Notes: generated by a model not told the origin, from the letters alone. DNA of 64,000 bases from Dictyostelium discoideum (GCA_000004695.1 CM000152.2:2272001-2336000); one strand, 5' to 3'; positions 81 to 50,261 are shown, counted from the first letter of the stretch. Numbers and translations are program-made.

Positions 81-1528
81 TTATTGATCCTTTTGTTGTT
101 GTTGTTGTTGGTGTTGATTATAATTATTAATAATTTGTTGATTTTTCATATTTGGTAATGGTAAACCAGTTTGTCTTCTTGGTTCTAATAATAAAGATTT
201 ATCAAACATTTCATCATCATTTAAGATTGGTCTTGATAAGATTTTATCACGTAATGCAACATTTGAAGGCATTGGATAAGGATTTGAACGATATAATCTT
301 AAATTCTTTATAATTAAATGAATTGATCTTAATTTTTCAAAATTAATTAATTGTGTTGATTTATATTCTTCATCATCATCATCATCATCATTATTATTAT
401 TATTATCATTATTATCTAAATTATTTGATTTATTATTTGATTTATCATTATTATTATTATTTATAATTAAAGTTGGATTTGAATCTTCAATAACTAATAA
501 ATCTTTTGTATATAAACCTAAATATGGAATTAAAGGTGGTGAAGATGAATTTAAAACTTCTCTATAATTTTTATGATTTGATTCAGTTGAGAAAATCTTT
601 TGTAATTCTTCAAATTGATTCATTGATTTCTTTGAAATTTTATCCCAAGTTAAATATAATCTTTTAATTGCATAATGATAAATTCCTTGAGTGATAGCAT
701 AACAACAATGGAAATTTTTTAAATTTAAAAGTATGAAAGCAATCTCTATGAATTTTTCAATTACAAGTGCACGTGATGCTGGTGTTGTACAATTTAAAAT
801 CTCTGAACCAACCCAAGAACTCCATCTATTGAATAGTTGTACCATAGATTGAAAGTTTGGTGAAAGATCAGGTCTAACGAATTTCTTTTTCAATAATTCA
901 AAAATTGGTATCATTCTAAATGCTTTCTCATCAATTAATGTAATTTGAATAGCTGCTTGTGTACTATCAATATCACAAAAATTAAATTTCTTTGATGTAG
1001 AATTCTCACCACCACCACCATTCAATGATAATGATGATGTTGTTCTTGATCCACCAAGTATAAAATTATGTAATTGACGTTGCATTAATAATGAATCTGA
1101 ACTAATTCCCATTGGATTTTGTGATAATGATGGTGATAATGTTTGTGGTACTGAATTATTATTATTATTACTATTAATATTATTATTACTATTATTATTT
1201 GTTGTTGTTGTTAATATTGATACTGATGTTGTTGGTGTATTGTTTACAGAAGATAATGGTGAAGAATTTGAAATTAAAGGTGATGAAGAAGATGAAGGGA
1301 ATGGAGGTGGTAAACCACTTGATAATGTTGGAGTTGATGGTGAAGATAAAGCAGTTGGTGTACCAGTTCCACTAAATCCACCAATATTATCATAATAATA
1401 TTGATTATAAGTTTGTGATACTCTTTTACAAAAATCACTAAAAAATTGAAAATATTTAAATTCTTCATTTGGTAATGGTTGAAAATAATTTCTACCATTA
1501 TTATTATTGTTATTGCTATTATTATTAC

Positions 1529-1559
<31 letters not shown>

Positions 1560-1991
1560 TTGAATTGGTTGTTCAAAATATTTTTCAGTAAAATCTTGAA
1601 TTAATTCAACTGATGAATTACATTCTTCAATTTGATTCCAAAACATTGGTTTAAATTCAATTAATGATCTAATTAAAAATAAACATCTCTCTCTAATTTT
1701 CATTCTAAACTCTAATTGAATATTATATAAATTTTCATAATGTTTCTCTTGACTATATATTGATATCAATGACTGAATGTATGATTCAGTAGATAAGAAA
1801 TAATCATTATGACATAAATTTACAATTTCAATAAATGTATCATCCTTATAATAATAATCCATCAATTTCAATAAAATTTGATTAACTGTAACATTCTTTA
1901 CAACTTGATTACCTTTTTTAATTATATAATTTGATTGATCTTTTTCGTTAATCTAAATTAAAAATAATTTATTATATTTTAATATTAATAT

Positions 1992-2022
<31 letters not shown>

Positions 2023-4340
2023 AAAACCTACATCAAATATTTTCTTTAAATTTTTAATTATAAAAAATGTAATTAAAATTGCATTATCATATTGTTGAAT
2101 ACTAGCATCATTATTAATTTTAAATAATATTGGACCAAAAATATTTGAAATTTTATGTTGAATAATTTCTAATTTCTCTTGGTCTTCATAACTTAGAGAT
2201 TCAATTAAATTAATATCAAAACTATTATTATGATTTTCATTTTCATTTTTATCCATTGTATCAATATTATTATTATTATTACTATTATTATTACTATTAT
2301 TATTACTATTATTACTATTATTACTATTATTATTACTATTATTATTATTTTCAATACCAATTTCAATTTGAATTAATTTACAAAGATGTGATAATAATGA
2401 TTTTAAAACTGTCCAATGAATTTGTGGTTGTGAGAATATTATTGAACGTACAAATGATAATTTATATCTTTCATCATTTTCATCGATAATCTTATTAATA
2501 GTTTCAGAAAGTAATACATCTGGTAAAATTGAATTTGGTAATACTTTAAAGAAATGAATTAATAATTCACCCAATACTTGTGGTTCTACCATTTCATTCA
2601 AATTTTTATATGCATCCTCTTTTCCTCTAGTAACTAATTTAATTAATGATTCAATTGTTATTCTATTTCTTGGTGATGATGGTTCAATAATTGTTGTTGT
2701 CATAACAATTGGTTGTGGTTGTGATTGTGGTGGTAGTGGTAGTGGTAGTGGTAGTGGTAGTGGTGGTGGTGGTTGTATATTTCCACTATTTCTTATATTT
2801 GATGTTTGATTGTTATTATCTGTACCAATATTTAAATCTGGTATAGTTATACTATTTCTTATATTTGATGTTTGAATATTATTAATATTATTAATATTAT
2901 TATTATTATTTACATTATTATTACAATTATTTGTATTTGTATTATTGTTACTATTTGATTCGCTGCCGCTGCTGCAAATTTTACTATTATTTGTTGAGGT
3001 AGAAGTTGAATTATTTATATTATAAATAATTTCAATTGATTCTTTAGTTGATTCTAAATGAGTTATTAGATGATGTAAGAAAACAGGATAAGGTGAATCA
3101 CCTAATAATCGCATTGATTCTAAGGGTATACCAAATACATCCTCTTTGAAACAATATTGTTGTACATCACCCCTTGCATTTCTAGTTGTTAACATTTTAC
3201 TTAATGTTGATGCTGCTGCTTCTTTATTTGTATCAACTGTTGATTTTTTACTTGTTTTAAATAATGGTTTAAAAACCAATGCTGTTGTATTTGATCTTTC
3301 TCTAGGTGAGACTGGTACTTCAATATTATCATTATTATTATTACCATTATTATTATTTGTATCAAATCCAATTGTTACATTATTAGCACCATTTTCACTT
3401 GTAAAACGTGGTGATGAAATTGGTGTTGATTGATTTGATGATTCTTTTGAACTAAATAAAGATATTAAAATATTTTGACCAAATGCAATTGATTTATGAG
3501 TTTCTCTACTTGGTTTTCTTGATGCAACACCATTATTATTATTATTGTTATTATTATTTGATTGTTGATTAATTGAAAATTGATTGGTTGAATAGGATCT
3601 TGGTGGTGAATTAGAATAAGGTGAATTTGAAGTTGTAGTTGGGGTTGATGCTGGTGTACTCCCATTACCACTATTAGTAGTAGTAGTTTGAGAGTTTGTT
3701 GCTGTTGTATTATTATTATTATTATCACTATTAATAGAATCTTGATCTTCCTCTGCAGCCAATACAATCTTTGAATCTTTATCTTTTAAAGGTGATAAAA
3801 GATAATTTAAATTATTTGTTTTATTCTTTCTTAATGTTTTACCACCACCACCACCACTGCCACCACTTCCACTACCACCAAATGATGGTAATGAACCACT
3901 TCTACTTCTAGTCTCTGGTTTCAATCTAGATTCTTGATGAACAATATTCAAATTCTTACTTGGTGATGTTGATAATTGTAATGGTGGTATCTTTGGTGGT
4001 GATGATGAAATTTTATCGTCTTCTATTCCGTTGTTATTGTTTTTGTTATTATTATTCTTTGGAATTGGTAATGATGGTGAAGTATTTGTAGTTGTTGTAT
4101 TTTTTGTAGTATTAATAATTGGTGGTGGAGTTGTAACTTCAGTTGTTGTTGGTGTCGATACTATACTTGGAGTTGAAGGAGCAGTATAAGAACCACTATT
4201 ATTATAATTATTATTTATAATGATTGGATGATTTGATTCTTTTAATATTGATTTCGAAGGTGATTGAACAGAAACACTAAAGAAACGATTTCTCTTTTTC
4301 TCAAAGCTACTTGGTTCACCATTAAATGTTAATTTCTTAC

Positions 4341-4387
<47 letters not shown>

Positions 4388-4899
4388 GTATTACTAGTTG
4401 AAACTGATGTTAATCTTGGACTTTGAACTGATAGTTTATGTTGATAAATTAATGCTTGATATGCAGATTCAACATCTTCAAACATTCCAAAAACATATTT
4501 CTTATAAGATGTTGTAATCTCTATAGAATGCCCTAAAATAACTGATGATACTCTTTTAATTGATAATACATTTTTAAAATCTGAATATTTCTTTTGTGAG
4601 AAAAAAAATAAAAAATAAATTATTAATAAATATACGTTAATATAATATATTATTATATAATATTATTATTATATATTAACAACTTACTTTAATTTCCTTA
4701 TTAAAAATTAAACTATAAAAACAAAAATAATTATTTGTAATGAATAATTTACCAGCTTTTGAAACCTTTCTTCTATATGCACAAACATATGGTTGTTCTG
4801 ATACTAATCTCTCAAATTCTGGTAACTCGAATATTTCTAAAATATTAATTGAAAATTTATTTTTAAATGGTACAATAGTATCCTCTGTTGTTTCTTCTA

Positions 4900-4945
<46 letters not shown>

Positions 4946-5554
4946 GTTATTATTATTATTGTTGTTGTTGTTGTTATTATTATTATTATAATTATTATTA
5001 TCTTTAAATATATATTTAACTTTACTTAATAAGGTTTGTCTTCTTCCATTATTGTTAATATTTCCTAATGGTGGTTTTAAAGGTGATGAAGAAGGTGAAC
5101 CAATTGGTGATGATGATTTTCTTACAAAATCTGAATGTGCTTTTTCATTAAGATCATATGAGTATGATGTTGAATTTGGTATTCCATTATTATTACTACT
5201 ACTACTACTACCATTACTAATTGATTGTGATCTAGTTTGTTGCATCGACTCATCGAAATAAAATGTTGCAGGTGGTAACTGTACTTTTAATGGTGCTGCT
5301 GGTGTCATGGTGCTGCTATTTCTTGATGTAGTAGCGTATTTCCATGTTTTATCATTATCATTATTATTTTTATTTTTATTTTTAATTATTTTACCATTAT
5401 TACTTTCTTTTTGAGTCGAAGATGAAGATTCTAAATCAACATCTTCAAAAAATTCTTCCTCTTGATTTTTATTAATACCATTACTACTACTACTAAATGA
5501 TATTGATGTGGATGCGGATTTTTTTAAATTTCCACCATTGTCACCTGAACTCAT
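81..5554 (-). CDS. GRAM / RhoGAP / RasGEF multidomain signalling protein, about 1765 aa, 3 exons: join(5554..4688,4590..2032,1952..81)
   Basis: Seen in sequence: real ATG at 5554-5552. Exon 1 ends ...[13 protein letters not shown] followed by GTAAGT (4687-4682). Acceptor ...cacaaaag|AAATAT at 4591/4590; the reading continues [13 protein letters not shown]...[13 protein letters not shown], which completes a GRAM-domain consensus across the junction (phase 0). A RhoGAP-like block runs from (V)[12 protein letters not shown].. to ..FGPILFK...NLKKIFD, then donor GAT|GTAGGT (2031-2026). Acceptor aatttag|ATTAAC at 1953/1952 (phase 0) joins in frame to [18 protein letters not shown] (RasGEF N-terminal domain). 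The CDC25-type RasGEF catalytic domain is [14 protein letters not shown]...VRPDLSPNF...[11 protein letters not shown]...LGLYTKDL. The 'M' at 1871 in the ORF track is a TTG. Domain calls rest on established family consensus. Introns are 97 bp and 79 bp. Confidence 0.8.
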
Positions 5555-6572: not shown

Positions 6573-8186
6573 TTATAAACCAATTGGTTTATATTGTCTA
6601 TCTCTTTTAACTTTTCTAACAACTAAAACTGCAACTATAACAATTAAGAAAAATCCACCAATGACACCAAATGAAATTCCAACTTTTTGACCAGTTGTTA
6701 ATCCGTTTGTATTATCACTAGAGATTTCGAAATCATCTTTTTCACATTGTAATTTTTTAGATTGATTAATAACAGTACAAAAATATGAAACTGATGGTAA
6801 GCAATCTATACCAAAAGAATTTACAGTATTGGTTTCATTAATTTTAAAAGTAGTACTTGAAAGGTTAATTTTAGAGTTTGTACAATAAACTGAAGGACCA
6901 TGATCATCTTGTTTAGCATAGTTTCCAATGAAGCTAGTACTGTTAATAGTTATACTACTTGAGTAGATATCAATTGCACCACCACTAACTGCTGCGGTAT
7001 TATTAATGAATTGAGATCCAATGATTGTAGTTGGAGTATCGAGAAAAGCATAATTTGAAGAATTTATATTGATAGCACCACCATTTTGGGCAAAGTTATT
7101 GGTGAATATAGAGTTTTTAACTAAACATTCAGTGGCAGTGAGTGAAATAGCACCACCAGAAGAACCTGGTGATTTTTGGTTGTTATTATTTGCAAATAAG
7201 CAACTATCAACTGTAATTAAACCAGAATTTAAACCAAAGATTGGAGCAGTATTTAAATTGTTTACAAAATTACAATTTAAGAAATAAGTCTTTGTAAAAT
7301 AATTTGTGAAAGCAAAACCAATACCACCTAAAGCATTTGTGAAATTTACATTTGTAAATTTGAATTGTGGTGTAGTGAGGAACTCAGATGCTAAAAAGAA
7401 GGCTGCATTAGAAGCAATTGAATCCAATTTTGAATTTGTCATTGTCAATAGACCATTTCTCATATAAATAATACCACCAGATGCTGAGTTTCTAATATTG
7501 CTAAATGAACATTGATCAATTGTAATTACAACATTTAAATCAAAAGCATAAAGTACACCACCGGAAATTTTTGAAGATGTTGAATTATTAAATGTGGTCT
7601 TACTGATATTAATTACACTGTTGGCTGGTGGGTAATCAGATTCGCCATCGGTTGAATCAATTGCAATTGAACCACCACCAATTGTTGCATTATTATTATT
7701 GAATACACAATTATTGATTTCCAATTGTATATTTGATGTACCATTATTGAAAAGTACTGGTCCATATGGTTTATTACCATTTTGAAATGTAATACCAGTG
7801 AATGAAACTATACTTGTGTCATAGATTGATGATGGTTCAATTCTAATAAATGAATCAGTAGCATTTGAAAGATCAATAATTACATCATTGGTTTCTTTAT
7901 TATTATTTACAAGAGTTATAGATTGGTTGGTCACTTTTCCAAATGTTGCTTGATTAATCAAATATGTACCTGGTTCAATATTCATTGTTATGCTTTCAAA
8001 TTGTCCACCACATGATAAAATTGATTGACTAATACTTTGACATGGTGTGGCTGCTGCAGTACCACAATTTTCTGTCAATCCAGATTTTGAGTCTGTATAA
8101 CTAATACATTGTTCTCCTCCCAATACTATATTATCACCAAATATATAAACATATAAAAATAATAATGCAATAATTAATTTATACAT
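6573..8186 (-). CDS. Secreted / type I membrane protein with parallel beta-helix (PMP-type GGAI...FxxN) repeats, 537 aa
   Basis: ATG at 8186-8184. N-terminal signal peptide MYKLIIALLFLYVYIFG. Repeated GGAI / GGSIAI / GGII motifs and Asn-rich beta-helix-like repeats. Single C-terminal TM segment (VGISFGVIGGFFLIVIVAVLVV) followed by a basic tail RKVKRDRQYKPIGL. Continuous ORF with non-AT-biased codon use. Confidence 0.8.
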   Translation of the reverse strand: MYKLIIALLFLYVYIFGDNIVLGGEQCISYTDSKSGLTENCGTAAATPCQSISQSILSCGGQFESITMNIEPGTYLINQATFGKVTNQSITLVNNNKETNDVIIDLSNATDSFIRIEPSSIYDTSIVSFTGITFQNGNKPYGPVLFNNGTSNIQLEINNCVFNNNNATIGGGSIAIDSTDGESDYPPANSVINISKTTFNNSTSSKISGGVLYAFDLNVVITIDQCSFSNIRNSASGGIIYMRNGLLTMTNSKLDSIASNAAFFLASEFLTTPQFKFTNVNFTNALGGIGFAFTNYFTKTYFLNCNFVNNLNTAPIFGLNSGLITVDSCLFANNNNQKSPGSSGGAISLTATECLVKNSIFTNNFAQNGGAININSSNYAFLDTPTTIIGSQFINNTAAVSGGAIDIYSSSITINSTSFIGNYAKQDDHGPSVYCTNSKINLSSTTFKINETNTVNSFGIDCLPSVSYFCTVINQSKKLQCEKDDFEISSDNTNGLTTGQKVGISFGVIGGFFLIVIVAVLVVRKVKRDRQYKPIGL

Positions 8187-8533: not shown

Positions 8534-11500
8534 TTACAACTGCTCGTCATTACCGTTTGGGGTGTTGAAAGATGAATTATTAGGTGATTCGAAATCATTA
8601 TTAGAATATTCAGAAGGTGAATTTGAGTTTGAATTATTTGAATTTTGGCGAGAATCGCTGATCATTGTTGATAATTTGGTACTGTTTCTATTTTTTGAAC
8701 CTCCGCTATTTGTTGGACTATTATCTGAACTTGTATTAATATTTCTAGCACGTTGTTCAAAACAATACAAAATACTAAATCCAGGAACGATTTCAGTGAT
8801 TATTAAACCAATGAAACTGAATATCATTGAATTTACATTTCCTGCTACTAAAATCAATACAAATACACAATGTAATAAAAATCCAATCGAACATGCAACA
8901 GTGAGTGTAAAAATTTTTCTTTGATGATTTGATTTTGAGCCCACTTTAATATTGGTTGAACGCATAACAATGAATAAACGGCCACCCAAGTAAATGAATG
9001 CTGCACCCATAATTAATGAAATTAATGCTTGAATCACCGCGTAAACAATACTAACTACACGTTGTGGTGTTGAACTTTCCACTGGAATTATAATACGCGA
9101 ACCACAATCATTACTTGGATCGGTATTGGTATATTGGAAAACTAATACAATGGCAATGAATAATAGGTAGAGGAATGCATTGATTACAAATACAATTGTA
9201 AATAATCTCTTTGATAAATTCTCAGCAGATTTATTCTTTTTCAATACCAAGAATACAATGACATACCAAAGTACTAAAAGAATATTAAATGCTGTAAAGT
9301 AAATAAATGTTGGTAATACCACTAGAATGTAATCGGCGATTGGACTATCAGATAAATTACCACTTGGCATAATAAAGAAATAAATGGCTCTAATTGTGAT
9401 AAATAGTGTTACGACACCAATTAAAAGATGGGTTAGTTGGAAATTTCTTTTTTCTGAAACAAACTGAGTTCTAACAATAAGACATAATTCAAATAAACCC
9501 CAAATTGAGACTACTGAAAAGAGAGCACCCAATGTATACATTAATGCTCTTGATGTTGAGTCGAATGCTTGTTTACTTTCATTTTCCCATTCATCCATTC
9601 GATTAATTGGGAAATAAATTGGATTACCACCTTCAATGGTAACAATTGAACATAACATTAAAACTTCATCTTTACCTGCAGTTACACTATCCTTTGAAAT
9701 TTGAGTGAATATTTTATTTGATTGAATTGGAGTTGGTGTTGTTGATTCACCATCGATTTGAACTGCAAAATCTAAAATTGGATATTTTGTGCTAGATAGA
9801 GATATTTTCAAACAAATGGTTGCTTCATTTATACCATCTTGTGATTTAATCATAATACCATCTCCTAATAATGTACCAATGATTGCATCATTAGAGTTTT
9901 TAACACCATATTTATCAGCTTTCTTATAGGATACGAAATTTGATGCTAATGATTCTTTTTGTGCTGATGTATAGATTTCTCTTGAAATTTGTGAAATTGA
10001 TAAAGATTGACAACTTTGAGAGATTGAATCATTTGAAAATTCAATTTTACCATAATCGAATGAAAATGATGAATTTACACCTGCGCATGGTTTAGTTTGA
10101 CCTAATAATGGTGTTGATGCAGTGAAACATTGTGAGCCACCTTTACCTGAACAACTACATGTAATTGAGTTCAAATTTGATTGTAATCTTTCCATACGAC
10201 AATATGCTTCTGAACGGAATAAATCTGCAACTTGAGTTTTTGCTGCTTTTGTAACACTCTTGTAGAATAGTTGATAATTGAATACACTATCGATATCATT
10301 TGGAATGAATGATTTCGCAGTATTCCAAACAATTGGTTTATAAACACCTGGTAACCATGTAGCTGCTTTCCATTGGAATTTATTTGTCCATTTATTGAAT
10401 GAGTCCATACAACCTTCACATAAATCTTGATCCATTTCATTGAATTGGTAGTTGAATGGTAAATTATTAACTGTTATAGTGGATTCTAAAATTTTACAAC
10501 CCATTTGTGATGTACATGAACTTTGATTTCTTGCCGGTATCCACCATACACCACCATCATCTTCACAACTAACTTTACTCAAGTAGTCCAATCCTAATGG
10601 ATAACAACCATTTGGTGAATCTTGTTGGGCATATGGTTCACAACTTATGCCACTAAATTTACCATGTGGGAATAAACATTTACCATATCCATCAGGATAA
10701 TTATAATTTCTTGTAGTGGCTTGATTGAAATAAAATTCATCAGAACAAATACCTGCTGTTAAACATTCTTGTTCAGTTTGACACTCAATTGGTTTTAATG
10801 AGCATAAACTTTGTTGAGCATCTGGACCAATGCATTCACCTTCAAGTTTTGTTGAACAATCTATCCATGTATAACCTGAACCAGCAGTAATACATTGTTG
10901 TTCATCTGTTGCAGATTTTAATATACAAACTTTTGCTTCGGTTGACCATTCAGTTGTACCTACAGGATTATCTAATGCTGCACAATTTGTGCTATTCATT
11001 CCGGTTTGTAAAATTGCACAATAATCATCTTGATTATTTGCTAAACTTGAAGAGCATTCATAACCACATGGTACTGAACATTTACCTTTAGAATTACAAT
11101 TACTTTCGCTTGTTGCTGTTAAATCATATTCACCATTTGGTAAAAGACAAATTTGATTTTGAGTTTGACATGATGTTTGATCTGTAAATTCAGTAGCTAC
11201 ATGACATTGAGTATCTTCATTTGTACAAACACCACAAAAATCTTTTAAAACACAAGCATCTTCACATGACTCTTCAATACCATTTTCAGTATATGTATTA
11301 TCACTGCATGACAAGTATGGACAAATACCCCAAGAAGTACAATTATCAAAATGTGATACTAATCTAAAATCCCAATATAAAAACATACTATCCAAACAAG
11401 TATCATGATGAGAAAGGCATGAACCATCCAAACATCCATTTGTTGAATAACATTGTTCTTTGCTGTATGATACTCTTGACCCCCATGTATATGTAGAACG

Positions 11501-12348
11501 TTCATTTATATCATTTTGACCAATACAATCATCTTTTAAATGTTTATTGAAAACTTTAGTAACAACATCATCATTTACAATGGTTGAACTCTCCAACAAT
11601 GAGAATAATGTACCAGGTGATAAATTTGATAATACACATTTTACATATTCAAAATCGATTTTATTAAAATTTGGTAAACAAGTTCTTGAATATAAATTAC
11701 ATTTACCATCGCCATATCCATTACAATCTGTATCATTTGTACAAAATGATGTTGGTGGTATTAATTTACTCTTGCAATCTCTTAAAACTGTAATTGATGT
11801 TAATTCTAATTTGGTTGGTTCAGTTGATGGCACAGCACAATCATCAATACCATCCAACGAGCTACCATAATCTGATAATACTGATGAGGTACATTCTAGA
11901 CTTGAACATTGTTCACCTACTAAACTTTGATTCACCGATACGAATTGTGTGATGTTAGTTGGAATAATTGATGGATTACAGCATTGATAATAATCCTGAA
12001 TTGGTGAACAACATGGATCAGTTTTATATTCTGGATCAGTACTTAAGTATTGACATAATCTAATTGAAATATTCTTTACAACAGTTTCCATATGTAATAA
12101 TGATAATGCTTTATTACTACAACCTATCCATGCATCACTAATAGTTAATGAATCTAAACTATATCTATAATTATTTAATTCATCAATATCTGATACATTA
12201 AATAATACTTTTTCTGTATTTTCTAACAATTCCAAAACTTGTTGAAATTTATCAGTATCACATTCAATTTCTTTTTCTTTAAATCCAACTTGAATATTAA
12301 TTGGCTAATTAAAAAAAAAAAAAAAAAAAAATGGTTAGTAAATAATAA

Positions 12349-14921: not shown

Positions 14922-20826
<5,905 letters not shown>

Positions 20827-21477: not shown

Positions 21478-24400
21478 TCAATCATCATTACTGGTTGGAG
21501 TGTTGACTGATGAATTATTGGGTGATTCGAAATCATTATTTGAATACTCGGATGGTGAATTGGAATTAGTATTAATTGAATTTTGACGAGAATCGCTAAC
21601 CATTGTCGATAATCTCGTTCCTTTTTCTCTCTTTGAGCCACCTCTACTGCTACCCCTAGTTGTTCCACTTGCGGTGTCAGCAACATTATTTTTAGCACGT
21701 TGGTCAAAGCAGAATAAAATACTACATGCTGGAATAATTTCAGTGATTATTAAACCAATGAAACTGAATACCATTGAATTTACATTTCCTGCTACTAAAA
21801 TCAAAACAAAAGCACAATGTAATAAAAACCCAATTGAGCAAACGAATGAAAGTATGAAAATTTTTCTTTGATGATTTGATTTTGAGCCCACTTTAATATT
21901 GGTTGAACGCATAACAATGAATAAACGGCCACCCAAGTAAATGAATGCTGCACCCATAATTAATGAAATTAATGCTTGAATCACCGCATAAACAATACTA
22001 ACTACACGTTGTGGTGTTGAACTTTCAATTGGAATTATAATACGTGAACCACAATCATTGGTTGGATTTGATTTGGTATATTGGAAAACCAATACAATTG
22101 CAATGAATAATAGGTAGAGGAATGCATTGATTACAAATACAATTGTAAATAATCTGTTTGTTAGATTATCAGCAGATTTATTCTTTTTCAATACCAGGAA
22201 AACAATGACATACCAAAGTACTAAAAGAATATTAAATGCTGTAAAGTAAATAAATGTTGGTAATACCACAAGAATGTAATCAATGATTGGACTATCGGAT
22301 AAATTACCACTTGGCATAATAAAGAAATAAATGGCTCTAATTGTGATAAATAGTGTTACGACACCAATTAAAAGATGAGTTAATTGGAATTTTCTTTTAA
22401 TTGATATATTTCTTTGTTTATATCTTGCAATTGCGATTAAACATAGTTCAAATCCACCCCACAACGCGACAACCAAAAAGAAGGTGGCCAATGTATACAT
22501 TAATGCCTTTGATGTCGAGTCGAATGCTTGTTTTCTTTCATCCTCCCATTCATCCATACGATTAATTGGGAAATAAATTGGATTACCACCTTCAATGGTA
22601 ACAATTGAACATAACATTAAAACTTCATCTTTACCTGCAGTTACACTATCCTCTGAAATTTGAGTGAAAACTTTACTTGATTGAATTGGATTTGGTGTTT
22701 TTGATTCAATATCATAACTACCATCATTTATTTGAATTGCAAAATCATAAATTGGATATTTTGAATTATTTGTTCCAGATATTGTTAAACAAATGGTTGC
22801 TTCATTTATACCATCTTGTGATTTAATCATAATACCATCTCCTAATAATGTACCAATGATTGCATCATTAGAGTTTTTAACACCATATTTATCAGCTTTC
22901 TTATAGGATACGAAATTTGATGCTAATGATTCTTTTTGTGCTGATGTATAGATTTCTCTTGAAATTTGTGAAATTGATAAAGATTGACAACTTTGAGAGA
23001 TTGAATCATTTGAAAATTCAATTTTACCATAATCGAATGAAAATGATGAATTTACACCTGCGCATGGTTTAGTTTGACCTAATAATGGTGTTGATGCAGT
23101 GAAACATTGTGAGCCACCTTTACCTGAACAACTACATGTAATTGAGTTCAAATTTGATTGTAATCTTTCCATACGACAATATGCTTCTGAACGGAATAAA
23201 TCTGCAACTTGAGCTTTTGCTGCTTTTGTAACACTCTTGTAGAATAGTTGATAATTGAATACATCTCTATTTTCATTTGGAATGAATGATTTTGCAGTAT
23301 TCCAAACAATTGGTTTATAAACACCTGGTAACCATGTGGCTGCTTCCCATTGGAATTTATTTGTCCATTTATTGAATGAATCTATACATGCTTCACATGT
23401 TTCTTGGTTCATTTCATTAAAATGGAAGTTGTATGGTAAATTGGTTTCATATGATTCTAAAATTTTACAACCCATTTGTAATGTACATGAACTTTGATTT
23501 CTTGCTGGTGTCCACCATACACCACCATCATCTTCACAATCGATTTGAGTTAAAACCATTGGATTAATAGAGTAGCAACCATTTGGTGAATCTTGTTGTT
23601 CAGACTCCTTACATGAAATTAAATATTGATAATTATCATGTGGGAACACACATCTACCCAATCCAACAGGATAATGATTATTTGCAAGAGAACTAAAGTA
23701 AAAGTCATCGGAACAAGTACCTGCTGCTGTTAAACATTCTTGTTCAGTTTGACATTCAATTGGTTTTAGTGAACAAAGTTTTACATTATTTAATGGTCCA
23801 GAACATTCACCTTCAAGTTTTGTTGAACAATCTATCCATGTATAATTTGTACCAGTGGCAGTACATTGTTGTTCATCCGTTGCAGATTTTAATATACAAA
23901 CATTTGCTTCGGTTGACCATTCAGTTGTACCTACAGGATTATCTAATGCTGCACAATTTGTGCTATTCATTCCGGTTTGTAAAATTGCACAATAATCATC
24001 TTGATTATTTGCTAAACTTGAAGAGCATTCATAACCACATGGTACTGAACATTTACCTTTAGAATTACAATTACTTTCGCTTGTTGCTGTTAAATCATAT
24101 TCACCATTTGGTAAAAGACAAATTTGATTTTGAGTTTGACATGATGTTTGATCTGTAAATTCAGTAGCTACATGACATTGAGTATCTTCATTTGTACAAA
24201 CACCACAAAAATCTTTTAAAACACAAGCATCTTCACATGACTCTTCAATGCCATTTTCAGTATATGTATTATCTTTGCAAGACAAGTATGGACAAATACC
24301 CCAATCAGTACAATTATCAACATGAGAAACTAATCTAAAATCCCAATGTGCATAAATTGACTCAATACAAGTATCATGATAGGTAATACATGATTCATCA

Positions 24401-26845
24401 ATACATTCTTGATGTTGAACTGCATAACAATCATCTACTTGGAATCCTGGTGACCAAATAAATGTTGAACGATCTTTAATATAATTATGACCAATACAAT
24501 CCTCTCTTATATGGTTATTGAAAACTTTAGTTACAACATCATCATTTACTGTTGTTGAACCTTCTAACAATGAGAATAATGTACCAGGTGATAAGTGTAA
24601 TAGTACACATTTTACATATTCAAAATCGATTGTATCAAAATCTGGTATACAAGTTCTTGAGTATAAATTACATTCACCATTTCCATATCCATTACAATCT
24701 GTATCATTTGAACAAAATGGTGATACTAATTTACTCTTGCAATCTCTTAAAACTGTAATTGATGTTAATTCTAATTTTTTAGGTTCAATTGATGGCACAG
24801 CACAATCATCAATACCAGTTAACGAACTACCATAATCTGATAATACTGATGAGGTACATTCTTGACTTGAACATTGTTCACTTACTAAACTTTTATTCAC
24901 CGATATGAATTGTGTAACATTTTTTAAAACAATTGATGGATTACAACATTGATAATATCTAGCCAATTCTGAACAACATGGGTCAGTTTTATATTCTGGA
25001 TCAGTGACGAAATGTGAACAATATTTTGTTGATATATTCTTTGCAACAGTTTCCATATGTAATAATGATAATGCTTTATTACTACAACCTATCCATGCAT
25101 CACTAATAGTCAATGAATCTAAACTATATCTATAATTATTTAATTCATCAATATCCGAAACATTAAATAGTGTTGTCTCTGTTTTTTCAATAAGTCCCAA
25201 AACTTTTTCAAATTCTGTATTATTACATTCTAAATTTTTTTCTTTAAAATTAATAGTTAAATCAATTGGCTAAAGTAATAATAATAATAATAATAAAAAA
25301 TAAATGTTAATAATTTTTTAAAAAATAAATGTTAATAATTTTTTAAAAAATAAAAATAAAAATTTAATATTATTATTTACATTATTATTTTCATCAAAAA
25401 TAGTTCCAAGGAATTGTAAAGATGATTCTAAAATTGTTGAATAATTTTCAATAAAATCACCACCAACTGAAAGAATAAATGCAACTTGAAATGATTTTGG
25501 TTTAAAAGTATTTAATGGTGGCTGTAAAATATTTAAATAGTTAAATGAAGTTGAATCAATGAAACGAGCAGATACTGGCCATAATGGATTTATATCGTAT
25601 TGTGGATAAATTGCGGTGAATGTAGTGCTAGTTGTAAAAGCTGCTGAATCATAATCAATAGTTGGCAAACGTAAACGTACACTATTAACCAATGCTAAAG
25701 TACCAGGTTGTGTTGATAATGATCCCAATGAATATCTATACCTATTACCTTGATTTGTAATTGAAAATGAATAATCTGTTTCATAAACTGTATATACACT
25801 TAAATAAATAATTAATGGTGTTGTACTATCAACTGGTTCCAAATATAATACCATATTATTTTCATCTAAAAAAAAAATAAAAAATAAAAAATAAAAAAAC
25901 AATTAATAAATTAATAAATTAATAAATTAATAAAATTATTATTATTTAAATACGTTACAATCTTGTTCTAATTTCCAAGTTGTATAACTGGCATTTGGAA
26001 ATATATATTCGTTTGAAATAAATATTGAAGTACTTTGAAAAATTGAAGGGAAATTAAAATAATAGAAACCAGCATTTTCAACTTGAAATGAATAATGTTG
26101 ATATTGATTATCTGTTAAGAAACCATAGACAACTTGACCAATAGTTACACATATATGGTCAGATGATACTGGTTGACAATTTGAAGTGTCGACAGGTTCA
26201 CTTGGTACATCATTTGAACGAATGATCATTTTAAAAGTATAATTGTTACTAAGTGGTTGAATTCTTAAAAAGTAAGTGTCACGACTCCAAGAATCTGTGA
26301 ATGTAAAATGTTCAGTTCTATTCCAATTATCTGATGGACATATATTGAATAACATATTTCTTTCAGGTGAAAAACCAGATGAATAACGTGAATAGCTTGA
26401 TGATGGTGTTTTACCATTAATATAAACTTGACCATATCCAGAGATTGGTAAAACTTTTAAAAATAAACCTTTACAACCAAATGAATCGGCTTTCATTCTA
26501 AAAAATAGATCCTCTGATGTAGTATAGATTTTTTCTGTATCCGATTCAATAGTTGTCCATTCGCCATTACAAATATTCTCAGTGACATTACATGCATTTG
26601 TACAACTTGGATCACGGATTTTCGGACATTCGTTCATATCTGTATAATCACATGTACAATCTATATTCTTATCACTTGGAATATCTGTACAATTATAGTT
26701 TGGACATCCCAATGAATCATATAAATAAATATCTTGATCAAATTCAACATCAATCAATGCATATGATAAATCGGTTCCCAATAAGTTAACATCTTTTTTT
26801 ATAATAGTTGACGATTTAACTTCAATACCTATTTACAATTATTTT

Positions 26846-35457: not shown

Positions 35458-36309
35458 ATGGCAAACAAAGAGATAAAAAGAAAAACTACTGAACCAAAAA
35501 AAGAAATAATAAAAGAAGATGATAAAAAGAAAAAAATAGATGTTGTAGTATCAAAAAATAAAAAACAAAAAGTTGAATCACCACCATCTTCTGAAAGCGA
35601 ATCAGAAAGTGAATCAGAGTCAGAATCATCAGAATCAGAATCAGAATCAGAATCAGAATCAGAATCAGAATCAGAATCAGAATCAGAATCAGTTGAAAGT
35701 GAATCCTCAGAATCTGAATCTGAATCATCAGAATCTGAACAATCTGAAAGTGAATTAGAAAAAAAAAAAGAAAAAGAAAGAAAAGCATTTGAAAAATTAT
35801 CACCAAAAGAAAAAATTGATTATCAAAAGAAACAAATTGAAAAAGAATTTAAAGTACAAGAAAAAGAGAAAAAGAGAGAAAAAGAAAAGAAATTATTAAA
35901 GCAAGAGAAAATTAAAAAAGAATTGGAAGAAAAGAAATTAAAATCAAAAAATTCAGAGATTTTAATGTATTTAGATACTTGGAAAAATGATAAATCAAGT
36001 TGGAAATTTGAAAAGAATACTCAAGTTATTTTAATTAAAAATATTTATTCAATAGATACATTACCAGAGAAATATTTCAAAATCGCATTAGAATATTTAG
36101 CACCACTAAGAGGTTTAATTAAAGATAGAACTGTTGATGAAGCAAAACAAGTTATTACAAAATATAAAACAAGTCAAACTAAAAAGAAATTACCAAAATC
36201 TAAAACTGATAGTGATGATGAAAGTGATGATGATGATGATGAAATTGAAAAAGAAGATAAAATTAAATTCGAAAGAGCTCAAAGTATAATAGAAACTTTA
36301 GTTAAATAA
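35458..36309 (+). CDS. Acidic Ser/Glu-repeat, lysine-rich, nucleolar-type protein, 283 aa; possible C7orf50/DUF2373-like C-terminal domain (low confidence)
   Basis: ATG at 35458. (GAATCA)n encodes an (ES)n tract. KKEKE basic/acidic charged blocks. The C-terminal block DTWKNDKSSWKFEKNTQVILIKNIYSIDTLPEKYFKIALEYL resembles the WKFnK..Q.WLL motif of the C7orf50 family as I recall it, not verified. Confidence 0.65.
   Translation: MANKEIKRKTTEPKKEIIKEDDKKKKIDVVVSKNKKQKVESPPSSESESESESESESSESESESESESESESESESESVESESSESESESSESEQSESELEKKKEKERKAFEKLSPKEKIDYQKKQIEKEFKVQEKEKKREKEKKLLKQEKIKKELEEKKLKSKNSEILMYLDTWKNDKSSWKFEKNTQVILIKNIYSIDTLPEKYFKIALEYLAPLRGLIKDRTVDEAKQVITKYKTSQTKKKLPKSKTDSDDESDDDDDEIEKEDKIKFERAQSIIETLVK
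35630..35692 (+). repeat. Perfect (GAATCA)n hexamer repeat encoding (ES)n, inside the CDS at 35458-36309
   Basis: gaatcagaatcagaatca... about 10 units, with imperfect copies on both sides. Confidence 0.9.
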
Positions 36310-36618: not shown

Positions 36619-37756
36619 TTAAATTATTTTTTTATTATTATAAAGTTCTTGTTTTACATATAAACCTTCTTCTTTTTCTTCAATTTGATTTTTATAGTTA
36701 AAGGCAGCAATATCTTTTTTCATGGCAATTTCAGGTTCAGTAGTATTGAATAAATCCTCCAATTGAGCGAGAGGAACCTCACCACATTTTAAGAGGAGAG
36801 TTTGATTAACTTCATCGAAACTAAATATTGATTTCTTACCTACGATACCTACGTACTCTTCTTGATCTTGGTCACCGAAAAACAAAACAACAATCTTTTT
36901 ACCTTGAATCAATGATGGGAGTAATTTAGTGTTTGGAGGAATTACAGATAAATCTTTAACCCAAATACATGGTAACAATGGACAACTATTTGTCTTTGCC
37001 CATAAAACACCACCGAAAGCTTTTCTTTGACTGAGATACAATTGAACTAAGGGAGGTAAATTTTCAATTGGCTTATAGTGTGGATTTGGTTTACCCAAGA
37101 TTGCATTATTAGAGGATCTAAACAATTCAATCAATGAAATAATAAATTTATGAGTTGATGTCCATTCTTTTAAATTCTTTGGTGGTCTACCTTTTGGTTT
37201 ATCATTATCTAAAACAATTGGTCTTTTCTTGGAATGCACATCCATTGGTTTTTGTGTTGATGTTGATGAAGAAGATAATGAAGTTGATAAACTTGAAAGT
37301 GATGATGTTGTTGGATTATTATTGTTATTATTATTATTATTGTTATTATGATGATGATGTGACATCATATGATGATTATTATTATTATTATTATTATTGT
37401 TATGATGATTATTGTTATTATTATTATTACCAGAAAAATGAGACATTAAACCATCATCACCACCATTACGTGGTCTTGGTTTTGTTGGTGTTGAGTTTGA
37501 TGATCCTGATCCTGATGATGATGATTGTTCATCATCATATTGACGTCCAGATTTTAAAATTTGAATATGACCATTATTATTATTGTTATTGTTATAATTA
37601 TTATTATTATTATTATTGTTATAATTATCATAACTACCATATGATTGTTGTTGAGAGAGTGAAGATAAAGCATTTAATGAAGAATATGATGAATTTAAAT
37701 TATTATTACCGTTATTATTATGATGATTATTATTATTAATATTGTTATTATTAATA

Positions 37757-37791
<35 letters not shown>

Positions 37792-37829
37792 ACTATTGTT
37801 GTTATTCATATTATTATTGTTATTATTAA

Positions 37830-37863
<34 letters not shown>

Positions 37864-39790
37864 ATTATTGTTGTTATTATTATTACTATTATTATTATTA
37901 TTATAAGGTAAACCAAGTTGTTGATTATTATTTAAAATACGTGGATGATTTGAAGAATTTGAATTACTAGTACAATTTGAACAATCGCAAAGTCCTTTAC
38001 AACAGAAACATTCCCATTCATTTCTTTTCATTAAAACTTGAAAGTTTTGACCAAAAGTATTGACTACACATTGTTCACAGAAACGAGCGTTACAATTGGT
38101 ACAAAAGATGATTGAAAACTTTTTAAAACGTTTTTCACATCTATGACATTTGATCTTCTTTTGAGAGGAATAAAAGACTACATGATAAGCGACAGTTGCA
38201 GTTGTAAGGAAACCACATTCATCAGAGACACGATCGGTTGATTTGGTGATGATATCATCGACTTCCTTTGGACGACGACCACTATGAGCCAATAGATTCT
38301 TGTAGATTTCATAGAAACTACTCAATTCTTTCTTTAATTTGCTATGAGAGATGAATTCTTTGAGTACCATAACCTTGAAATGGAATTCACAACCGATACC
38401 AGACGAGACACAATCGAAACAGAAATCCTTACCTTGACCATCATCGGTTTTACAAGTTTCACAATGGTAACAACGATTGAAGATATCAGAGTTACAATGA
38501 TCACAACGACGATCTTGAATACGGTCGCCATTAAAGTATTTGAAAGGTTGAAGGAATGGTATGGTTTCACCATTACAATAGGGATAGTTTGGTTTTGGGA
38601 TTAGGATGGACTCAGTTTGTAAAATGTTATGAAATATCTCCAACAATGGTGCAATGATATCGATGACATCGTTTACATCGATCGTATTGAAATTGGTATT
38701 CTCTACATCACCCATAATCTTTCTAAGGGTGTAATAAGCGATGGCTTTAATTCTAAAGAGTTCTGGTTTTGCCATTCTTCTTGTATGAGGTAATGATGAA
38801 AAGTAAGAGATTGGCAAAGACTTTAAAGAGATACTATTCCATGCTACCTTTGTTGAAATGCCTGGACCACAGTTTACCACTTGATGTACGGAATCGGGTG
38901 GAACGAAAATGAAATCTCCTGGACGTTGTTTAAATACGTATATTGGAAATGGAGCACCCAAAAGATCGATTGGTCTAATGAATCTTGATTCGTTGTAAAC
39001 GTCACCTCCCTTGTCACCCCAAAACTTTAATGCCTCATCTTTGTATTCAGTTGGAACTATAAACCACCATGCAAAAGCGTCTTGGTCACTTGATACCATA
39101 AGGTTTTGACTAAGACTGCCACACATATCGATATGGCCTGGTGTATAGGTACCATTGCTACCAATATAAACTAACAATGTCTCTGGTTGTAAATAATCTG
39201 GTAAATGTGATACTAAATCGAATCTACTCTTGTATGAATATTGTGGTTGAAGTTTATGTGAAAGATATTCTTGCCATTCGCGTGGACATGCTATATCTTT
39301 ACCATATAAATGTTTTGGATTTCTTTCTTCTGGTGAAACTTGTAAATATGATATAAAATCTTTCATTCTCCATCCTTGTAAATCTGTATGAGTTTCATTA
39401 TTTCTTGGTGAATTAATTAATTCCATTTCTGAATATCTTTCCTATTTTTTTTTTTTTTTTTATAATTTATTTAAAAAAAAAAAAAAAATAAAAAAAAAAA
39501 AGTTAGTATTTAAAACATTTTTTTTTTCTTTTTAAATTTAACCATATAGTGATATTGTTTATAATTTATTATTTATTTATTTTTTTTATTATTATTTGAT
39601 AAGATGATTTTTTTTTTTTTTTTTTTTTTTTTTCATTTGATTTAAAAAAAATTTAATTTAAAAAAAAAAAAAAAATTAATTTGAAAAAAAAAAAAAAAAT
39701 AAAAATTCTGATACGAAATAGTGATATTTTTAAATTGAAATTAAAAAACAAAAAATAAAATAAAATAAAATATTTTTTAATTTAAAAAAA

Positions 39791-39822: not shown

Positions 39823-40107
39823 TGAATAATAATGATGATAATAATAACTTACAGATAAAAAGTCAAGAGTAAACATATTACTTCTTGACCAACCTTGAGT
39901 TGTACCTGTTAATACAAATGGTTGACCTCTTTTTATTATATAATCCTCTACTATTTCTGGACTAGTTGTTTGGTATGGTTGGTTTGACATTATTATGAAA
40001 TTCGAATTTGGTGCCTTTATTAATTCTTCCATATTAAAATTAAGTATATTATCAACACTAGGAAGATACATTGGGAATTCTATATTTCTAGTTGTATCAA
40101 CTTGCAT
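36619..40107 (-). CDS. JmjC-domain (KDM3/JMJD1-like) protein with Cys-rich zinc fingers and C-terminal PWWP domain, about 1025 aa: join(40107..39853,39441..36619)
   Basis: Seen in sequence: the 125-aa ORF (ATG 40107) ends ..GQPFVLTGTTQGWSRSNMFTLDFLS|GTAAGT (39852-39847). An in-frame phase-0 acceptor aaaaatag|GAAAGATATTCAGAA sits 15 nt upstream of the ATG at 39426, giving ..DFLS|ERYSEMELINSPRNNETH.. Established knowledge supports the join: in KDM3-type proteins a W-containing block directly precedes the JmjC core, as here with (H..D...S...G.K.W..HQVVNCGPGISTKVAWN). Two C-rich fingers follow (CDHCNSDIFNRCYHCETC.., CHRCEKRF..CTNCNARFCEQC). After a poly-N/H region comes a PWWP-like block VLWAKTNSCPLLPCIWV...KKIVVLFFGDQDQEEY. 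The 411-bp intron is long for this genome, hence moderate confidence in the first exon. Confidence 0.7.
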
Positions 40108-40299
40108 CTTTTAAGATATATATATATATGTGTGTGTGTGTGTGGTATAGTTTTTATAAATGTATTATGTATATATTTATATAAGTTATTTATAAATATG
40201 TGTGTTTTTTTTATTTTTATTTTTATTTTTTTATTTTTATTTTTATTCGTTTTGTTTTTGCTGTAATTATTAACTATTAATTCTTTTATTTGTTTGATT

Positions 40300-40740
<441 letters not shown>

Positions 40741-40747
40741 AAACACT

Positions 40748-40847
40748 NNNNNNNNNNNNNNNNNNNNNNNNNNNNNNNNNNNNNNNNNNNNNNNNNNNNN
40801 NNNNNNNNNNNNNNNNNNNNNNNNNNNNNNNNNNNNNNNNNNNNNNN
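40748..40847. other. Assembly gap (100 N)
   Basis: Exactly 100 n characters. Confidence 1.
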
Positions 40848-40970
40848 TAAAAAAAATAAAAATAAAGAAAAAAAAAAAAAAAAAAAAAAAAGAATTCAAG
40901 ATAAAGATTATTATATTTGATTATCACTTTTTAAACCATAATAATTTAAAAAAAAAAACACTATCCTACG

Positions 40971-41014
<44 letters not shown>

Positions 41015-41264
41015 TTTTATTATTATTTTTTTTTTTTTTTTATTTTTTTTTTTTTTATTTTTTTTTTTTTTTTATTTTTTTTTTTTTTATTTTTTATTTT
41101 TTTTTCTCAAATTATTTTTTTAAAAAAAAAAGAAACACTCTTGGACCTTTTCTTAATGTTCAATCTATGGACAATAAATCTATTTTAACTAAATATCTAA
41201 TTTTTTAATTATTATTTTTTTTTTTTTTTAATTAAATATTTATTTTTATTTTTTTTTTTTTTTT

Positions 41265-42626
41265 TTAATAAAATAACACCATAGTATCTAGCAAATCAGA
41301 TAAAAAAGGAAGATGAATTGAATCTAAACCCTTTTTCCAAGCATTTGTAGTACTATCGACTTTAACTAAATGTCTAAGTTTCTCTTTGGTATCGGATAAT
41401 ATTGAGATAGAGATTCGACTAATTATTAATTGTACACCTTGAATTATACCACGTTGTATTGAGATACCACAAGAGGAGGATAGATTAATTTTATAAGATT
41501 TTGATATACTTTCTCTCATCTTTTTAATTTGATTTGATTCGATATTTGGTCTTTTAAAAAGTGCATACAATATAGACTTTACTCGAGTAATATATTTCCT
41601 ATAGCCAATTGTGAAACTACTATTATTTATACATGTTACATTTGAATTCATTAAAGAAATATACCACCCATTCCTATTTGGTATATCATAGAATAGTATA
41701 TTTGAAAAATGACTACTAACATTATCCCAAATCAATGGCAATCTATCACTATTATTACAAAATATATCAAATGCAATAACTTGACCCAACTGATTCAATT
41801 TCTTTTCACCACCATACCCTGAAAAGTATTCTTTATAATCTAAATCTTTAAATGATTTACCATTTGGTGCATATTCCATAACTATTTATTTTTTTAAAAA
41901 AAAAAAAAAATAATAAAATATTATTAGTATTAATGTTTTTTTTTTTTTTTTATTTTTTATTTTTTTAAAAAAAAAGAACTTACTTAAAAAAAATGATTTT
42001 AATAATTCCAATTTAATATAATCATATAAACTTTTATTAGTTTTTGAAGATATTGTTAAAAGTGATCTTGACATTTGAATATATTCATCATTTGAGTATT
42101 CTAATAATCTCATTTCGGGTATTGGTAATTTTAAGATACTTTCTAAAACAGATGCATAAACTTCTTGAACAATAGTTGTTGATGATTTTAATAAAACTTG
42201 ATTGTACTCACATTTATTATTTAAAAATGTTGCAATTAAAAATATATTTGAACTACCTAAATCAAGTTTATCAACACTAATTAATGATGACCAGTCAATA
42301 CAATGTATATTTGAATATTGAATCATTGGAATATATGAATTATTATTTTTATTTTTATTTTTATTATTATTATTATTATTATTATTTATTGAATTATTAT
42401 TATTATTAATATTATTATTATTTACACTATTATTACCAATATTAATATTATTATTATTTTCTATATTTTCTTCATTTATTTTATTCTCAATTATTATATT
42501 ATTTTTTATATCAGTACAAGTATTAGAGGTTGAATCATTTGTTGATTTTTTAATTTCTATATTATTTTTCTTATTTTTTATCTTTTCAAAAAAAAAGTTT
42601 TTTTTAAACACTTTTATTTTATTCAT
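41265..42626 (-). CDS. Actin-fragmin-kinase-like / atypical-kinase-like protein, about 419 aa: join(42626..41984,41881..41265)
   Basis: ATG 42626. Exon 1 ends ..LLKSFFL S (TTA A|GTAAGT, 41983-41978, phase 1). Acceptor aaataaatag|TT ATG at 41882/41881 (phase 1) gives ..SFFL-I-MEYAPNGKSFKDL.. The motif QLGQVIAFDIFCNNSDRLPLIWDN resembles the catalytic-loop region of actin-fragmin kinase family members (recalled, not verified). 102-bp intron. Confidence 0.6.
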
Positions 42627-43034
42627 TTTATTTTATTTTTAGTAATTACAAAAAAAAATACTGGTTTATTTAAAAATTGTCGGATTTGGGATTAATTTTA
42701 TTATTATTATTTTCCTTTCCCCCAAAAAAAAAAAATTGGTTAAAATTTTTTTAAATTTAAAAAATTAAATAAATAAATAAATAAATAAATTTTTAATATT
42801 AAATATGTGTCAATTATAATTGTGAATCAACTATAAATTATTCGTATTATATATATATATATATTTTTTTTTTTTGATATTTTTTTTTTTGAGTTAAATT
42901 TAAAAATAGATTATTGGATATATGTTGCTATTGTTATAAATAGATTTTTTTTTTTTGGGTTTGAATGTGTGTTTTTCTTTATTTTTACAGTGATATTAAT
43001 CTTATTTTATTTATTTAAATCTAAATCTTTAAGG

Positions 43035-43067
<33 letters not shown>

Positions 43068-43337
43068 AAAAAAAATAAAAAAATAAAAAATACTAATTTA
43101 AAATGTAATCTTTTAAAAAAAAATAAAAAATAAAAAAAATAAAAAAAATGAATAAAAAAATAATATTGAGAATGCAAATAAAAAAAACAATTGCCATATG
43201 CTAATATAGACTCACACCTCCAATTTAAATAAAAACACCATAACACACTACCCACACTATTAAACCACACCCTTAATAATTTTCTAAAATTATTTTATGT
43301 ATGATAAAATACTTCCCTTAAATAGTTCATACTCATA

Positions 43338-43396
43338 ACACTTACTTCTCTCTCTCTATTTCTCTCTCCCACACACACACACACAAACACACACTT
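43338..43396. repeat. Compound (CT)n / (CA)n dinucleotide microsatellite
   Basis: ttctctctctctatttctctctcccacacacacacacacaaacacacac. Confidence 0.85.
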
Positions 43397-44847: not shown

Positions 44848-44890
<43 letters not shown>

Positions 44891-45849: not shown

Positions 45850-45893
<44 letters not shown>

Positions 45894-45987
45894 CTAACCA
45901 TCGTCACCTTTATTATTAATAAAACAACTAATTTATAAATTTCAATCCAGCGAATTTATTATTCATCAAGTTGATTTATTACTAAAA

Positions 45988-47847: not shown

Positions 47848-47867
47848 GAAATTTTAAATAAAATACT

Positions 47868-47899
<32 letters not shown>

Positions 47900-48141: not shown

Positions 48142-48172
<31 letters not shown>

Positions 48173-48204
48173 TGAAATGATGATTAGCAAGATTGTGTAT
48201 TTGA

Positions 48205-48236
<32 letters not shown>

Positions 48237-49758: not shown

Positions 49759-49830
<72 letters not shown>

Positions 49831-50226: not shown

Positions 50227-50261
<35 letters not shown>

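Follow-up and report, generated by a model that had tools for sequence, protein, structure and literature searches.

Can one protein of Dictyostelium discoideum switch Rho-family GTPases off while it switches Ras-family GTPases on? This question is raised by a gene at positions 81-5554, on the minus strand, of a 64,000-nucleotide (nt) stretch of DNA (GCA_000004695.1 CM000152.2:2272001-2336000), referred to here in its full length as the window. A first-pass annotation, made from the sequence alone, had joined three open reading frames (ORFs) at this locus into a single polypeptide with GRAM, RhoGAP and RasGEF domains, and had proposed the product as a cross-talk node that is both a GTPase-activating protein (GAP) for Rho and a guanine nucleotide exchange factor (GEF) for Ras. 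The analysis reported here retains the joined gene and, with a probability of roughly three in four for the reading as a whole, points to a gflD-type Ras/Rap GEF in which a non-catalytic RhoGAP-like module would bind Rho or serve in regulation.

Judging from reading frames and comparative tests, the three ORFs are one three-exon, minus-strand Dictyostelium gene with a predicted multidomain product of 1765 amino acids (aa). From its N-terminus, the architecture comprises a low-complexity region, a GRAM domain, a Ser/Thr/Asn-rich linker, a RhoGAP-homology domain, a REM (RasGEF N-terminal) domain and a CDC25-homology RasGEF domain. The GRAM, RhoGAP-homology and CDC25 RasGEF domains named by the first-pass annotation all score above their Pfam thresholds in the joined product. 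By its domain order, the predicted gene is a member of an amoebozoan family whose proteins have REM-CDC25 preceded by a fused RhoGAP-homology domain. The RhoGAP-like, REM and CDC25 module occurs without GRAM in Balamuthia, Clastostelium, Luapelamoeba, Thecamoeba, Stenamoeba and other dictyostelid paralogues, and GRAM-containing orthologues were, among the relatives found, confined to dictyostelids.

The combination of RhoGAP and RasGEF and the architecture of the gene were already known (PMC1273635; PMC4865317; related-strain NCBI annotation). Wilkins et al. (2005; PMC1273635) reported that RasGEFD carries a RhoGAP-homology domain and that gflA-D encode CDC25 domains without a detected RasGEF_N domain; the same study names GRAM for RasGEFU only, and not for RasGEFD. 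Exactly three Dictyostelium proteins combine RhoGAP with RasGEF, namely GflB, GflD and GefD (Senoo et al., 2016; PMC4865317).

The RhoGAP-homology domain and its arginine-finger position

The RhoGAP-homology domain occupies positions 2032-3138 on the minus strand, as do all features of the gene described below (aa 774-1142, VFGIPLE...KKIFD). Its native match to PF00620 covers aa 932-1040 (E = 1.8e-10, 41.3 bits against a cut-off of 24.5, profile positions 28-131) and is partial because two low-complexity inserts, at 2665-3012 (aa 816-931) and 2200-2349 (aa 1037-1086), interrupt the domain. With both inserts removed, the match is 56.3 bits and spans profile positions 1-146 of 148. A ten-member family profile aligned over the whole domain with ARHGAP15 (E = 1.4e-25) and also with p190, DLC1, GRAF, p50RhoGAP and others, and the helical core motifs LP.PLL, YK.S..RS.I.SQ and IFGP are strongly conserved across dictyostelids. 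The Pfam scores, native and without inserts, and the recognition of the fold against many active RhoGAPs favour the dual-activity enzyme of the first-pass annotation, a reciprocal cross-talk node with Rho/Rac inactivation assigned to the RhoGAP domain and Ras activation to the CDC25 domain.

The catalytic positions speak against such an enzyme. In the profile alignments, the Arg that forms the finger in ARHGAP15 and p190 (...GIYRVSG...) falls opposite Asn813 (codon at 3019-3021) of ...IEIIYNINN..., just after the conserved (I/L)(Y/F). This column (hmmalign column 53) was compared across 31 RhoGAP-RasGEF proteins aligned to the family hidden Markov model (HMM), all of which, apart from the window protein, were drawn from its closest CDC25 relatives. 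A residue other than Arg was found in 30 of the 31, and the single Arg came from one poorly aligned sequence. The residue is Asn in the window protein and in the related strain, Leu or Ile in the other GRAM-clade orthologues, and Val, Ile, Thr, Asn, Ser, Gly, Asp, Met, Gln and others in remoter RhoGAP-RasGEF relatives; the putative GflB-clade proteins P0067 and P0102 read LFT[RK] at this column, likewise without Arg. Furthermore, the NLAxVFGP motif reads HKISNIFGP, with Lys1102 in the place of the conserved Asn (presumably N194 in p50RhoGAP numbering), and orthologues have Arg, Lys, Tyr or Gln there. The alignments also indicate that GRAM-clade sequences vary at the positions matching p50RhoGAP K122, R126 and N194. 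The first low-complexity insert, of 116 aa, begins three residues past the finger position, which counts further against the dual-activity enzyme.

The first-pass annotation had called for a check on a particular Arg, that of ...LESMRLLG.... This residue was rejected as the arginine finger, as it aligns to non-catalytic positions that are Cys in ARHGAP15 and Val in p190. The same annotation had held that its claim would fall if the RhoGAP block both lacked the catalytic Arg and failed HMM thresholds; the Arg is absent, but the threshold is passed. Because the HMM threshold was passed and the catalytic-residue test failed, the domain, which has the fold but not the catalytic residues, is best described as a pseudoGAP and most likely is one; the idea that it turns off Rho GTPases is not supported. 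A statement that the arginine finger has been lost across the whole family was not found in the literature searched, which included a full-text search; the primary GflB RapGEF paper lay outside that search.

Related folds with binding functions are known. The RhoGAP-like domain of OCRL1 and the BH domain of PI3K p85alpha share the RhoGAP fold, and both were recovered from the PDB by the family profile. Neither is known to have an effective arginine finger, and both serve as binding modules, OCRL binding Rho; unlike the window protein, neither is fused to RasGEF. Bem2 of Saccharomyces cerevisiae is an active Rho GAP. It shares with the window protein the pairing of a RasGEF-like with a RhoGAP domain (PMC1273635), although the domain order differs.

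The exchange module and its proposed function

The CDC25-homology RasGEF catalytic domain lies at 171-992 (aa ~1463-1736), with a Pfam core (PF00617) at 330-953 (aa 1476-1683; E = 2.1e-49; 168.3 bits against a cut-off of 23.1). It matches the Cdc25 domain of RasGRF1 with E = 5.5e-31. The helical-hairpin motif P[FY].G.Y...L...E[ED]..P is retained and aligns with PYLGMYLTDLVFIEEGTPN of RasGRF1, the mapping to SOS residues being inferred, and an Asn/Asp-rich insert of 37 aa (351-461; aa 1640-1676) lies within the loop that follows the helical-hairpin helix. An AlphaFold2 model of exon 3 had a mean predicted local distance difference test (pLDDT) score of 71, with 85-97 in its structured parts. 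This model matched the RasGRF1 Cdc25 domain (2ije) with a template modelling (TM) score of 0.92 and a root-mean-square deviation of 1.7 Å, and the REM and catalytic domains of yeast Cdc25 with a TM score of 0.77. As modelled, the CDC25 domain is apparently intact and superposes on RasGRF1 and SOS.

The REM domain upstream of it, at 1566-1928 (aa ~1151-1271), scores 17.5 bits against the RasGEF_N cut-off of 28.3, and the corresponding region of Polysphondylium violaceum scores 32 bits. The family profile aligns to SOS1 from REM through Cdc25, and in the exon 3 model the REM domain has a pLDDT of about 85-93 and TM scores of 0.69-0.78 to SOS REM-Cdc25. The RasGEF N-terminal domain listed in the first-pass annotation is thus absent at the Pfam threshold but present by family profile and predicted structure.

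Towards the N-terminus, the GRAM (PH-GRAM) domain lies at 4447-4837, intron 1 included (aa 240-337; Pfam PF02893; E = 1.6e-13; cut-off 23.6 bits; profile length 112), and scores 63-68 bits in orthologues. The linker that follows is low in complexity and fast-evolving, and two conserved motifs are embedded in it. The first, RSRSGSLPS (3883-3909; aa 517-525), has a core, RSRSGS, that is invariant in all six aligned GRAM-clade sequences, and an SLPS flank in which some orthologues differ by conservative substitutions. This motif agrees with both the RxRxxS (PKB/Akt-type) and the RSxSxP (14-3-3 mode 1) consensus. The second, RERSNT (3286-3303; aa 719-724), is of R[ED]RS type. Its R-x-R-S core is invariant in the same number of aligned sequences (6/6) and positions 2, 5 and 6 vary; in the form found in the window it fits the RxRxxT consensus. 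By their match to these consensus motifs, both are candidate regulatory sites, of PKB/Akt type and, for the first motif, also of 14-3-3 type.

The gene in the window is most likely gflD, by elimination against GflB and GefD. This identification is favoured because the product has a GRAM domain and a sub-threshold REM domain, GflB is 1601 aa long with different landmarks, and GefD is described as having no GRAM and a detected RasGEF_N domain. GflD (UniProt Q54WL2; PMC7888446) is one of the three RhoGAP and RasGEF proteins, and its 'gfl' class, in which no RasGEF_N is detected, matches the sub-threshold REM of the window protein. It was named but not studied by Wilkins et al. (2005; PMC1273635), and a functional study of GflD was not found in the literature searched. 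RasGEFD (GefD) shares with the window protein the RhoGAP-homology and RasGEF domains, and its RhoGAP domain is possibly effector-like (PMC1273635). However, it belongs to the complete RasGEF class with a detected N-terminal domain, and GRAM has not been reported in it. A short RhoGAP-RasGEF protein of Dictyostelium purpureum (P0107; 607 aa, partial) probably represents the GefD type.

GflB resembles the window protein in its C-terminal module of RhoGAP-homology, REM and CDC25 domains, its N-terminal membrane- or lipid-targeting region and its long low-complexity N-terminus. It differs in that this N-terminus binds phosphatidylserine and F-actin and has no Pfam GRAM domain (PMC4865317; PMC5997169), and the CDC25 regions of putative GflB-clade proteins are just about 27% identical to that of the window protein. 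GflB is up-regulated in development, whereas GflD and GefD are not (PMC4865317).

In the favoured reading, the REM-CDC25 module would catalyse nucleotide exchange on a GTPase of the Ras or Rap family, a proposal made because the module appears intact and because the paralogue GflB is a Galpha2-stimulated Rap1 GEF (PMC5997169). The GRAM domain and linker may target or regulate the protein at membranes. The RhoGAP-like domain would be a non-catalytic Rho/Rac-binding or intramolecular regulatory module that does not promote GTP hydrolysis on Rho, and Rho/Rac would feed into Ras/Rap activation, instead of Rho being turned off as Ras is turned on. Such a binding or regulatory role agrees with the behaviour of GflB, which uses its RhoGAP and RasGEF region to bind RacE, whatever the nucleotide state, and also to bind Rac1A and RacB (PMC4865317). 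Wilkins et al. (2005; PMC1273635) had noted that some RhoGAP-homology domains occur in effectors.

Several points weigh against this reading. An AlphaFold2 model of the RhoGAP region, built from a five-sequence alignment, was poor (mean pLDDT 45), and its Foldseek matches, nearly all of them to RhoGAP-domain structures, had E values of at least 0.08 throughout; the finger assignment rests on sequence and profile alignment. R784, the Arg of ...LESMRLL..., is identical in five aligned GRAM-clade orthologues and is near the finger loop in sequence, as is a clade-specific RGKED motif, and either could in principle supply a repositioned catalytic residue. The name gflD, moreover, was reached by elimination and not by a direct sequence match to the named gflD entry.

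R784 and the RGKED motif, as possible non-canonical fingers, also favour the dual-activity enzyme, as do reviews in which GflB is said to balance Ras/Rap1/Rho activation (PMC9630474). However, the binding of RacE by GflB in either nucleotide state is not GAP-like (PMC4865317), and together with Asn813, the near-uniform loss of Arg from the finger column, the exchange of the conserved Asn for Lys and the adjacent insert it makes the dual-activity enzyme unlikely.

A further alternative is that the RhoGAP-like domain binds no Rho GTPase, and is instead a structural or autoinhibitory scaffold for REM-CDC25 or an insertion-tolerant linker. The two long low-complexity inserts within the domain would fit such a role, as would the several contact and catalytic positions at which it departs from canonical RhoGAPs. 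In addition, the domain is always found directly upstream of REM-CDC25 across Amoebozoa, as expected for a co-evolving intramolecular unit. This explanation has a small chance of being correct, as the conservation of the helical core motifs across dictyostelids implies selection on a surface, and a GflB fragment with this domain pulls down RacE, Rac1A and RacB (PMC4865317).

The favoured reading, of a gflD-type exchange factor with a RhoGAP-like binding or regulatory module, can be extended to the whole amoebozoan family, although this extension is tentative and falls somewhat short of even odds. In GflB, GflD, GefD and their relatives in the five other amoebozoan genera named above and in the dictyostelids, the RhoGAP-homology domain would be a catalytically dead Rho/Rac-binding module, and the proteins would work as effectors of Rho-family GTPases or as coincidence detectors, with the status of Rac/RacE read out as activation of Ras/Rap. 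Within this family, GflD would stand for a version targeted by GRAM, so far found in dictyostelids only, whose linker may be gated by PKB and 14-3-3 (R517-S525 and R719-T724).

The consequences for annotation are small, given that the gene model and the three-domain architecture are already present in the related-strain NCBI annotation and in dictyostelid orthologues, and that the RhoGAP and RasGEF trio is already cited in the chemotaxis literature. The label RhoGAP, however, suggests that Rho is turned off, a suggestion carried into reviews of GflB, and the missing finger argues against describing these proteins as combined RhoGAP/RasGEF enzymes. Models of Ras/Rap-Rho cross-talk in Dictyostelium chemotaxis or macropinocytosis should regard such domains as candidate Rho-binding pseudoGAPs unless GAP activity is demonstrated.

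Exon structure and splicing

ORF1 (4676-5554; 292 aa), ORF2 (1972-4485; 837 aa) and ORF3 (81-1871; 596 aa) are as described in the first-pass annotation, and phase-matched GT..AG junctions join them into one polypeptide. Exon 1 (4688-5554; 867 nt; aa 1-289) starts with the ATG at 5554-5552 and encodes the N-terminus, which is of low complexity and includes a run of poly-Asn, together with the initial half of GRAM. Exon 2 (2032-4590; 2559 nt; aa 290-1142) encodes the second half of GRAM, the low-complexity linker with its conserved basophilic Ser/Thr motifs, and the RhoGAP-homology domain. Exon 3 (81-1952; 1872 nt; aa 1143-1765, with the stop codon TAA at 83-81) encodes REM and CDC25 RasGEF. 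Each exon length is divisible by 3, and the spliced coding sequence of 5298 nt translates into the 1765 aa with zero internal stops.

Both introns are of phase 0. Intron 1 (4591-4687; 97 bp; 9% GC) reads GTAAGT...CACAAAAG, ends in AAAAG and interrupts the GRAM domain after ...FNKEIK (aa 289/290). Intron 2 (1953-2031; 79 bp; 8% GC) reads GTAGGT...AATTTAG, holds an A25 tract and, following ...KKIFD, separates the RhoGAP-like domain from the REM domain. The first-pass annotation had regarded the GRAM domain as split by the 97-bp intron and restored on splicing, and the profile coverage bears this out: taken separately, ORF1 matches positions 5-53 at 39 bits and the beginning of exon 2 has no match; the spliced product matches positions 5-104 (50.9 bits). 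Matches to PH-GRAM structures in the PDB extend across the junction, albeit weakly.

Splicing was judged by comparative tests against a related D. discoideum assembly and dictyostelid orthologues. A homology search identified an NCBI-annotated protein of a related D. discoideum strain (P0001; 1761 aa) that is 91% identical to the window protein, with differences mostly in repeat lengths, and that has both window junctions and the same N-terminus. Its locus (L001) is collinear with the window, and with the low GC content of the window (about 22% overall) and the poly-Asn-rich ORFs typical of Dictyostelium these features form a D. discoideum signature. In a global gene alignment with L001, all 20 exonic indels were multiples of 3, compared with none of the four intronic ones (10 and 16 nt in intron 1; 32 and 2 nt in intron 2). 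Substitutions amounted to 2.4% in exons, 16% in intron 1 and 7.8% in intron 2, and the GT and AG splice ends were kept. The exonic Asn, Thr and Pro repeat tracts vary by 3-45 nt between the two loci, always in multiples of 3. The A25 homopolymer of intron 2 is approximately twice as long in the related strain, and the 32-nt insertion is placed by the aligner in this region.

Orthologues were found in P. violaceum, Heterostelium album, Acytostelium subglobosum (two copies), Synstelium polycarpum and one further dictyostelid dataset. Junction 2 aligns without gaps in all of these, and so does junction 1 except in the Synstelium model, where a deletion falls at this point. H. album has an intron exactly between ...FNSEIK and EHQAF..., within its GRAM domain and at the position of window intron 1, and P. 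violaceum has one exactly between ...NEIFN and DNDD..., at the position of window intron 2. Both window introns therefore have a position- and phase-conserved counterpart in another genus.

Splicing is considered real because reading frames and splice sites, the indel-by-three pattern, intron divergence, the related-strain annotation, conserved intron positions and orthologue continuity all agree, and the predicted gene model appears as secure as it can be made without RNA. The notion that the ORFs are separate genes or a decayed pseudogene with coincidental splice sites, to which the ATG at the start of ORF2 lends some colour, can practically be dismissed, as the gaps measure just 97 and 79 bp, have consensus GT..AG ends and contain 8-9% GC, GRAM is complete only after splicing, indels preserve codons, intron positions are conserved, and single-polypeptide orthologues exist in four other dictyostelid species and the related D. 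discoideum strain. The earlier warning that the locus is easily mis-annotated as separate genes proved unfounded, given that one gene model with the same three domains represents the locus in the related-strain annotation and for each of the four dictyostelid orthologues.

Other genes in the window

Directly upstream of the GRAM-RhoGAP-RasGEF gene, a gene on the minus strand (6573-8186) encodes a 537-aa protein, without a Pfam match, that is hydrophobic at its N-terminus, carries Asn/Ser/Thr-rich repeats and has another hydrophobic segment towards its C-terminus. It is kept in the related strain as a 535-aa gene at the same position (L001 513-2120). Beyond it, three paralogous ORFs in tandem, each about 1240 aa long (8534-12235, 14922-18683 and 21478-25200, all on the minus strand) encode a C-terminal multi-pass membrane domain of THH1/TOM1/TOM3 type (PF06454, E = 1e-10 to 1e-14). 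Their large N-terminal regions have no Pfam match, and the array looks like a local gene-family expansion.

A WKF-domain protein is encoded on the plus strand at 35458-36309, followed on the minus strand (36619-39426) by a 935-aa protein with JmjC and zf-4CXXC_R1 domains. The catalytic domain of actin-fragmin kinase (PF09192) is encoded on the minus strand at 41265-42626 by two adjacent ORFs in the same frame (profile positions 2-123 and 125-282). This actin-fragmin-kinase-like locus was considered as a pseudogene and rejected as such, since its apparent in-frame stop (~41.88 kb) most likely lies inside a short, extremely AT-rich intron ending ...AAATAG at about 41881; it is probably an ordinary two-exon gene. 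An aldehyde dehydrogenase is likewise encoded by two ORFs, on the plus strand (45988-46497 and 46513-47847; profile positions 5-84 and 88-457), with a short intron likely between them.

The region from ~40000 to 58000 has 15-17% GC, compared with 21-33% in most of the remaining window, and few long ORFs; several ORFs of 160-210 aa within it have no Pfam match. Downstream, a tRNA-Cys(GCA) gene lies on the plus strand at 58676-58749, and about 860 bp beyond it a penta-ubiquitin gene, also on the plus strand (59609-60754), encodes five Pfam ubiquitin repeats in 381 aa.

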